A program made the translations under genes and the position numbers. From sequence record PQ666539: DNA of 64,000 bases; one strand, given 5' to 3'. The notes beneath the pieces were generated by a model. The model did no database searches and was not told where the DNA came from. It was given only the letters and a program-made list of their open reading frames with translations. This document shows positions 62,297 through 62,935 of this stretch, piece after piece. The DNA comes from Shigella phage sb1. The stretch's first letter is position 1; the number at the start of each line of letters is the position of its first letter.

Positions 62297-62484
62297 TATT
62301 CTTCTACGTGTTGTTTACGACCTTTCCTATCAATAAAGGTATATTCAACGAATGTTCCAATATAGTCTTTATCTACATCATGTGGACTATTAATTGGGCA
62401 TTTAGTACGGCAAATGCGTTCCCATTGACGAATAATTTCCACTTTGTTTTTAGGATCAAACGGATGCGGGTAATGTACTTTCAT
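62272..62484 (-). CDS. hypothetical protein
   Basis: 70-aa ORF. Confidence 0.45.
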   Translation of the reverse strand: MKVHYPHPFDPKNKVEIIRQWERICRTKCPINSPHDVDKDYIGTFVEYTFIDRKGRKQHVEEYCLKVTWL

Positions 62485-62935
62485 AATCCACCACTATTAA
62501 ATCAATATCAGGAGTAAACATGTCGATTAATTTAGAAACCTTATCCCAATCACCACCAGCAATACCGCAACCTATGCGTGGAATGTAAATTACTGGTTTA
62601 AACAAAAGGGTTTCTGCATGTAGATTTAATTCTATCATACAGTTTACTAAAGCACCGTAATCAAGATTAGGGCCCGGTTCGTATTGGGTGTATAAATTAT
62701 AGCACATTTCAAATCCCTTAGGCCTATGTTTAAAAACAATAGACATATCACCTAATTTATCACGAGAGCCGTATTCGGTAGTAGTCTTATCAATTTCTAA
62801 AATTTTAGGATAGGCCCTTGCTAATTGACCCGCCACGCATGAACCCATAGTATGAAAACAGTTGCACCCATGTGCAATAATATTACCTTGGAGAAACAGG
62901 GCGACGATATCGCCCTTAATATATTTTACAATCAT
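62456..62935 (-). CDS. macro-domain-like protein (ADP-ribose binding/processing fold)
   Basis: 159-aa ORF with GDIVALF...NIIAHGCNCFHTMGSCVAG and PRIGCGIAGG motifs resembling MacroD/YmdB. Confidence 0.5.
   Translation of the reverse strand: MIVKYIKGDIVALFLQGNIIAHGCNCFHTMGSCVAGQLARAYPKILEIDKTTTEYGSRDKLGDMSIVFKHRPKGFEMCYNLYTQYEPGPNLDYGALVNCMIELNLHAETLLFKPVIYIPRIGCGIAGGDWDKVSKLIDMFTPDIDLIVVDYESTLPASV

Follow-up and report, generated by a model that had tools for sequence, protein, structure and literature searches.

A deeply diverged allele of tk.4/adfM, a predicted macrodomain gene, in Shigella phage sb1

The tk.4 locus and its two alleles

An open reading frame (ORF) for a protein of 159 amino acids lies on the minus strand between vs and tk.3 in a 64,000-nucleotide stretch of DNA from Shigella phage sb1 (record PQ666539), and the whole of this stretch is called the window below. 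A first-pass annotation made from the sequence alone had described the product as macro-domain-like, and the coordinates and length that it gave for the ORF, without naming a strand, proved exact (Table 1). Synteny and full-length homology identify the ORF as orthologous to bacteriophage T4 tk.4, an annotated gene whose identity had not been recognised in that annotation. The product shares 57% identity over 155 amino acids with T4 Tk.4 (NP_049723, 155 amino acids, annotated as 'phosphatase; contains A1pp phosphatase motif') in a full-length alignment with E=9e-69, and the T4 gene is likewise flanked by vs and tk.3 (window 62456..62935 against T4 60922..61389). The window belongs to a Tequatrovirus. 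Matches to the 1.3 kilobases (kb) around the ORF occur in 699 phage records, with a best value of about 96%; over its last 24 kb, the window is about 96.5% identical to Escherichia and Shigella T4-like phages. In these relatives the ORF sits between vs and a small hypothetical gene and is annotated as 'macro domain-containing protein', 'macro domain protein' or 'phosphatase'. The gene is thus already known: T4 and hundreds of relatives carry it under a macro or A1pp annotation, and an anti-DarTG2 role has been reported for T4. The macrodomain call, while correct, is an ordinary one that carries little weight as a discovery.

What this locus does add is that tequatroviruses hold two deeply diverged tk.4 alleles at one site, of which the window carries the second. 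In a nucleotide alignment with T4, vs and tk.3 are nearly identical between the two phages, and the identity of tk.4 drops sharply beyond its first ~130 nt. This break within near-identical flanks suggests that one allele was replaced by the other through recombination. At the 3' end of the gene, a 13-nt deletion lengthens the frame (...DYESTLPASV), which leads to a 29-nt overlap with tk.3. The two alleles are also apparent in the wider spread of the gene. The window protein was matched by tblastn (E<=1e-5) in 2,729 phage records, and the identities were bimodal, with ~300 records at 90% or more and ~2,300 below 60%. The allele type of the window, defined by at least 90% protein identity, accounts for ~300 GenBank phage records, and the T4 type together with remoter relatives accounts for ~2,400 further records, which include phages of Klebsiella, Salmonella, Pseudomonas, Vibrio, Acinetobacter and Campylobacter. 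The corresponding protein cluster at 90% identity has 304 members, under names that include 'Tk.4 conserved hypothetical protein', 'macro domain protein' and 'phosphatase'. The closest full-length nucleotide match to the window gene is 93% identical. Compared with phage Ec_MI-02, the nearest full-length relative examined for the substitution count, 34 of the 39 nucleotide differences in tk.4 fall on third codon positions, indicating purifying selection on the gene.

A promoter and terminator scan of 60300..64000 yielded 12 promoter-like sites against 15.6 in shuffled sequences, and none was placed to bound the transcription unit of tk.4. Further downstream, between tk.3 and tk.2 on the minus strand (61896..62296), there are two small ORFs with no counterpart at the T4 position. 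The first is Cys-rich and is listed as 75 amino acids, 207 nt by annotation in relatives, and the second encodes 58 amino acids; both occur in Ec_MI-02 and in teqdroes as 'hypothetical protein'.

Table 1. Coordinates of tk.4, its predicted active-site elements, neighbouring and compared genes, and example in-frame stop positions in the window
Feature	Position	Strand	Remarks
tk.4/adfM orthologue	62456..62935	-	single-domain macrodomain protein (predicted), 159 amino acids; ATG start, stop inside coordinates
H22-G-C-N25 motif	62861..62872	-	end of strand beta-2, with conserved active-site Asn N25; H22, G23 and N25 invariant in aligned homologues
Loop 1, M30-G-S-C-V-A-G36	62828..62848	-	GxG ADP-ribose-binding loop at N-terminus of helix 1; from family motif and model
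N80-L-Y-T-Q84	62684..62698	-	strand end with invariant Gln; aligns with catalytic Lys of TARG1 (K84) and DarG (K80)
Loop 2, P119-R-I-G-C-G-I-A-G-G-D-W130	62546..62581	-	diphosphate-binding, Gly-rich; P119, G122, G124 and W130 invariant or nearly so
vs (valyl-tRNA synthetase modifier)	62932..63279	-	upstream neighbour of tk.4; stop overlaps tk.4 start by 4 nt (ATGA)
tk.3	62272..62484	-	downstream neighbour of tk.4; in this allele, 29-nt overlap of its start with the 3' end of tk.4
modA	17392..17994	-	intact; 96% identical to T4 ModA
modB	17991..18614	-	92% identical to T4 ModB; two TAA interruptions as read
Stops in gene 43	30028, 31081		
Stops in rIIA	7178, 7187, 8000		
Stops in modB	18101, 18500		
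Stop in gene 41	25377		
Stop in gene 42	28409		
Stop in dda	15518		
Stop in gene 46	36678		
Stop in vs	63252		

Macrodomain fold and active site

The motifs on which the macro-domain call had been based are all present in the translated ORF: GDI at residues 8-10 (G8-D9-I10), IAHGCNCFHTMGSCVAG at residues 20-36 (I20 to G36), and PRIGCGIAGG at residues 119-128. Profile and structure comparisons fully support that call. The Pfam Macro profile PF01661 matches with 32.6 bits (curated gathering cut-off 22) and E=8.6e-8 over profile positions 2-117 of 118, and PHROG 335, a family named 'phosphatase', matches with E=1e-67. When the single protein was compared with PDB sequences by phmmer, the matches were BT1257 (3e-9), yeast Poa1p (2e-8), SCO6735 (1e-6), Mycobacterium tuberculosis DarG (3e-4) and human TARG1 (0.07). 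A family profile built from 40 homologues found the same proteins at 3.6e-19 for BT1257, ~1e-14 for Poa1p, 1.1e-15 for SCO6735 (5e3b), 4e-12 for DarG and 2e-16 for TARG1.

The alignment of these 40 homologues was also supplied to AlphaFold2, and the resulting model, with a mean predicted local distance difference test score (pLDDT) of 93 and a predicted template modelling score (pTM) of 0.88, consists of seven strands and five helices arranged in the three-layer alpha/beta/alpha macro fold with a central mixed sheet. In a Foldseek search with this model, the best PDB matches were TARG1 (E=2.9e-10, template modelling (TM) score 0.73-0.83), BT1257, Poa1p and the DarG macrodomains, and viral macrodomains ranked behind them. 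A total of 161 PDB matches had E<=0.001, and the 50 that were listed are macrodomains or serine hydrolases designed and evolved on a macro scaffold. The first-pass annotation had tied its call to a macro-fold prediction, and the predicted fold is indeed macro. According to the model, the window protein is a macrodomain of the ALC1/TARG1-like class.

To locate the active-site residues (Table 1), the family was aligned with TARG1 (a sequence checked to be identical to the PDB entries), two DarG macrodomains and PhiKZ gp104, which is also named AdfM. The residue aligned with N25 in DarG and PhiKZ AdfM is likewise Asn, and its mutation lowers activity both in PhiKZ AdfM (N23A; PMC13309987) and in SCO6735 (N27S; PMC9411070). 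Loop 2 aligns with PRIGCGLD of TARG1 (G123) and with PPLGxGNGGL of DarG, and N25, G122 and G124, all aligned with TARG1 and DarG, are invariant in the family. The N80-L-Y-T-Q84 segment aligns with Y-L-I-T-K84 of TARG1 and N-F-P-T-K80 of DarG, and Q84 is Gln in all 134 of 134 homologues. The second residue of the TARG1 catalytic dyad, D125, corresponds to A126 in the window protein.

BT1257 and SCO6735 likewise have Gln in place of the catalytic Lys (Gln85 in SCO6735). SCO6735 efficiently removes DarT-made ADP-ribose from DNA thymidine and rescues Escherichia coli from DarT; its activity is abolished when Gln85 is changed to Ala or Glu, nearly abolished by N27S and reduced by G128E (PMC9411070). 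A water-mediated mechanism, in which the Gln positions the distal ribose, has been proposed for the enzyme (PMC9411070). The equivalence of Q84 and SCO6735 Gln85 follows from the TARG1 and DarG alignments together with the statement in PMC9411070, rather than from a direct residue alignment. Because Gln occupies the Lys position while the Asn and the loop-2 glycines are kept, we place the window protein in the Gln-type ALC1-like branch with BT1257 and SCO6735, and SCO6735-like chemistry is expected for it.

Two other placements were considered and rejected. As a DarG equivalog, the protein scores 23.7 bits on the NCBIfam model NF048014 against a cut-off of 250. The match covers only positions 2-142 of 338, leaving no counterpart of the second domain of DarG; the F-P-T-K motif with the catalytic Lys is absent, N-L-Y-T-Q standing in its place; and there is no darT beside tk.4, the neighbours being vs and tk.3. 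As for a close relationship with PhiKZ AdfM, BLASTP gives E=0.01 over 33 residues.

A cysteine in loop 1 and the G:C>T:A changes across the window

As read in the window, codon 33 (62837..62839) is TGC and encodes Cys, at a position that is Gly in 134 of 134 homologues. Cys33 replaces the second Gly of the GxG in loop 1 (M-G-S-C-V-A), and helix 1 starts at this residue in the model. This residue arises from a C>A at 62839 that is private to the window and belongs to the G:C>T:A class of substitutions. It lies within one of the motifs quoted in the first-pass annotation, so that the error-like changes described below touch the very evidence quoted for the macro domain.

The same type of change recurs throughout the window. 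Codon 10 of vs (63250..63252) is TGA where T4 has GGA, through a single plus-strand C>A, and this stop led us to compare the window with T4 more widely; among the genes of T4, vs showed the strongest depletion in minimal medium in HIDEN-SEQ, a screen of a T4 transposon library (bioRxiv 10.1101/2025.11.20.689424). In-frame stops as read were found in gene 43, which encodes DNA polymerase (amino acids 502 and 853), in rIIA (three) and in modB (two), and further ones in gene 41, gene 42, dda, gene 46, rpbA, srh, nrdD and vs (examples in Table 1). Of the 21 stop codons examined, 15 can be traced to a C>A or G>T on the plus strand when T4 is taken as the reference. The vs stop likewise results from a C>A; among the remaining stops, one arose by T>A and four lie at sites without a call in the T4 comparison. 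The two TAA codons of modB differ in origin, one coming from C>A alone and the other from G>T plus an adjacent A>T.

Substitution counts relative to T4 point in the same direction. C>A and G>T together number 273, against 115 in the reverse direction. They fall on codon positions 1, 2 and 3 (in T4 frames) 90, 51 and 80 times, with 144 nonsynonymous changes and 15 stops against 62 synonymous changes. Transitions, by comparison, occur at position 3 in 873 of 1,103 cases and are 83% synonymous. Since ochre codons in the DNA polymerase gene are not compatible with a viable phage, the G:C>T:A changes are unselected. As essential genes are interrupted in it, the record contains errors or damage, which may stem from sequencing, from assembly, from lesions in the DNA or from corruption of some other kind, and single-residue oddities read from the window, including the Cys of the quoted motif, deserve distrust.

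Given that Cys33 is a private C>A of this unselected class, it is probably a sequence error, and the true motif is probably MGSGVAG. We consider it very unlikely that the residue is real and that the window copy is a crippled or binding-only macrodomain, whether a decaying gene or an ADP-ribose reader. Such a reading could draw on the replacement of an invariant Gly and on the Chikungunya virus macrodomain, in which binding and hydrolysis are partly impaired when loop-1 Gly32 is replaced by Ser or Ala, and replacement by Glu forces reversion to the wild type (PMC7232374); by our own reading, rather than by a computed alignment, Gly32 corresponds to residue 33 here. It could also draw on absence from the databases: the exact window protein is missing from a collection of 15 billion proteins, and a degenerate pattern coding for H-T-M-G-S-C-V-A-G-Q had no matches in IMG/VR viral contigs. 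The protein with Gly33 restored is likewise missing from the collection, however, and the absence of the exact sequence is therefore uninformative. Against a real Cys33 stand the type of the change, which is that of the stop-making changes in DNA polymerase, rIIA, modB, gp41, gene 42 and vs, the lack of codon-position bias in this class, so unlike the transitions, and the clear purifying selection on the rest of tk.4.

Proposed function and comparison with known macrodomains

The biological role of tk.4 has been examined in T4. Tk.4 was the single significant hit of HIDEN-SEQ on a DarTG2 host, on which it was depleted. T4 became sensitive to DarTG2 after a clean knockout of the gene, which was renamed adfM, 'anti-DarT factor Macrodomain' (bioRxiv 10.1101/2025.11.20.689424). 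A further factor had been expected, because T4 without adfA and adfN stays resistant to DarTG2 (PMC11825919). DarT2, the toxin of this system, ADP-ribosylates thymidine in single-stranded DNA (PMC11825919; PMC13309987), and another phage macrodomain, PhiKZ gp104, strips DarT2 marks in vitro (PMC13309987). The first-pass annotation had suggested that a phage macro domain might reverse or read either host ADP-ribosylating defences or the phage's own Mod-mediated marks. The knockout genetics of T4 tk.4 (bioRxiv 10.1101/2025.11.20.689424) favour the former option, whereas the latter, discussed below, is unsupported.

We therefore consider it likely that this orthologue of tk.4/adfM is an early-made, free-standing macrodomain that acts as a counter-DarTG2 eraser with SCO6735-type chemistry. 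In the proposed mechanism, tk.4 would be expressed early in infection from the co-directional vs-tk.4-tk.3 array. DarT2 of the host would attach ADP-ribose to thymidine of single-stranded phage DNA and block replication. The phage macrodomain would bind this ADP-ribose through both of its Gly-rich loops and hydrolyse the bond between thymine and ribose, which would set ADP-ribose free and return the DNA to its unmodified state. In this step Q84, held by N25, would position the distal ribose for water-mediated cleavage, following the SCO6735 model and not that of DarG or TARG1. By analogy, we infer that the 57%-identical window allele may act as T4 tk.4 does, and enzymatically. The cytosine modifications of T-even phages would presumably give no shield against a toxin directed at thymidine, which would explain the need for an eraser.

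Several points weigh against this interpretation. Hydrolysis by T4 Tk.4 is inferred in the preprint from fold similarity and was not assayed (bioRxiv 10.1101/2025.11.20.689424), and the window protein is only 57% identical to the T4 protein that was tested. Loop 2 differs between the two, with IGCGIAGG in the window and IGAGIGKG in T4. The family is without the catalytic Lys of DarG and falls far below the NCBIfam DarG cut-off (23.7 bits vs 250), and the window copy as read has a Cys at the invariant Gly of loop 1. Finally, the top sequence matches include Poa1p, an ADP-ribose-1''-phosphate (Appr1p) phosphatase, so that a small-molecule substrate is possible.

The eraser might also act more broadly. 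SCO6735 cleaves ADP-ribose linked to uracil on RNA (PMC13036486) and ADP-ribose on proteins (PMC9411070), and a Gln-type phage macrodomain could, by analogy, shield phage transcripts and proteins as well from still unknown host ADP-ribosyltransferases. We regard this extension as unlikely; if it held, the two diverged alleles at one locus might reflect adaptation to different host toxins. The CmdTAC paper, consulted for any connection with phage macrodomains, mentions the term only in its reference list.

A different possibility, which appears quite improbable, is that Tk.4 is an Appr1p phosphatase or another hydrolase of small-molecule ADP-ribose derivatives, which would clean up by-products of RNA repair or metabolites derived from nicotinamide adenine dinucleotide (NAD). 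The annotation of T4 tk.4 and the name of PHROG 335 both say 'phosphatase', and Poa1p is among the best matches in sequence as well as in structure. The invariant H22 falls at the His of 'LIHSCNC' in Poa1p and T29 at the Ser of its 'NGS'; these were matched to Poa1p H23 and S30, the residues mutated in PDB 6lfs and 6lft, by our own count from the construct numbering. The 'phosphatase' label, however, stems from domain naming and not from an assay, and both activities can coexist in macrodomains. To our knowledge, T4 RNA repair (Pnk/Rnl1) yields no Appr1p. The only phenotype of the T4 gene in the preprint's screen was the loss of DarTG2 resistance (bioRxiv 10.1101/2025.11.20.689424).

That phenotype could in principle also come from binding of the toxin, the apparent mode of action in descriptions of the small proteins AdfA and AdfB, with DarT2 neutralised without any hydrolysis. 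Support for this idea would come from DarG2 antitoxins, which carry a second, DarT2-interacting domain beside the macrodomain (PMC11825919); the product of tk.4, however, is a bare macrodomain of 159 residues with no counterpart of that domain. The invariance of N25, Q84, G122 and G124 down to ~37% identity fits an enzyme rather than a toxin-specific binder, and we consider toxin binding highly improbable.

The remaining option is the link to ModA and ModB, which had been said to lie in the same early region. That statement is only loosely true: their genes share the 64-kb stretch and the strand with tk.4, but all genes in the stretch lie on one strand, and modA and modB share nothing more with tk.4 in linkage. 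They lie ~44 kb off, with dozens of unrelated genes between, among them replication, recombination and nucleotide-metabolism genes. The closest solved relatives belong to the group of TARG1, SCO6735, BT1257, DarG and Poa1p, in which hydrolysis of thymine- and uracil-linked ADP-ribose has been reported for TARG1, DarG and SCO6735, and that of protein ADP-ribose for SCO6735 and TARG1 (PMC9411070; PMC13036486). Arginine-linked marks may be within reach of the fold, going by a reference title in PMC13036486 that names the arginine-specific macrodomain MavL, but MavL falls outside this comparison, and the homologues are spread over 2,729 phage records from many host genera (a count of macrodomain matches alone). 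We consider it extremely unlikely that Tk.4 removes or recognises the ADP-ribose marks that the phage itself makes through Alt, ModA or ModB.

Considered as a counter-DarTG2 eraser, the window protein can be compared with the characterised macrodomains. It is most like T4 Tk.4/AdfM (NP_049723), with which it shares the position between vs and tk.3, a start overlapping the vs stop, a single macro domain (155 residues in T4 vs 159 in the window) and the motifs H-G-C-N-C, N-L-Y-T-Q and P-R-I-G-x-G. The two proteins differ in loop 2, which is GAGIGKG in T4 and GCGIAGG in the window, and in the C-terminus, which is longer in the window.

SCO6735 (PDB 5E3B) and BT1257 (2AFC/2FG1) are the closest solved relatives by sequence and have the same Gln in place of Lys, with the Asn and the loop-2 Gly kept, but they are cellular proteins, and BT1257 is roughly 26% identical. 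In SCO6735 the mobile loop is longer and contains Lys residues, a feature that has been linked to the high activity of this enzyme on DNA (PMC9411070). In the window protein, the stretch after Q84, YEPGPNLDY, contains no Lys or Arg; it is compared here without a residue-level alignment to the SCO6735 loop.

Human TARG1/OARD1 (PDB 4J5R) is the best structural match, and its loop 2 is nearly exactly the PRIGCG of the window. In contrast, its catalytic dyad of K84 and D125 is replaced by Q84 and A126, and the identity is 20-21%. Yeast Poa1p (PDB 6LFQ) has the H-x-C-N-C motif in common with the window protein, as well as the pattern of loop 1 (E=2e-8, TM ~0.74), whereas its characterised substrate is a small molecule and its identity is ~21%. 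Poa1p is the source of the 'phosphatase' label on the phage gene.

The DarG macrodomains (M. tuberculosis 5M3I and Thermus aquaticus 5M31) and PhiKZ gp104 are likewise of the macro class and are likewise proposed to remove ADP-ribose from thymidine, and gp104 is, in addition, an orphan macrodomain of a phage that bears the name AdfM (PMC13309987). They differ from the window family in the catalytic Lys of F-P-T-K, where that family has Gln. PhiKZ gp104 is DarG-like, matching DarG with E=9e-25, and this, together with its match to the window protein at E=0.01, indicates that the two proteins called AdfM represent different subfamilies. What our comparison adds is thus the assignment, by sequence, of the T4-type AdfM to the Gln-type branch of SCO6735 and BT1257, apart from the Lys-type, DarG-like branch that includes PhiKZ AdfM. 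The shared name AdfM hides two independent acquisitions and probably two mechanisms.

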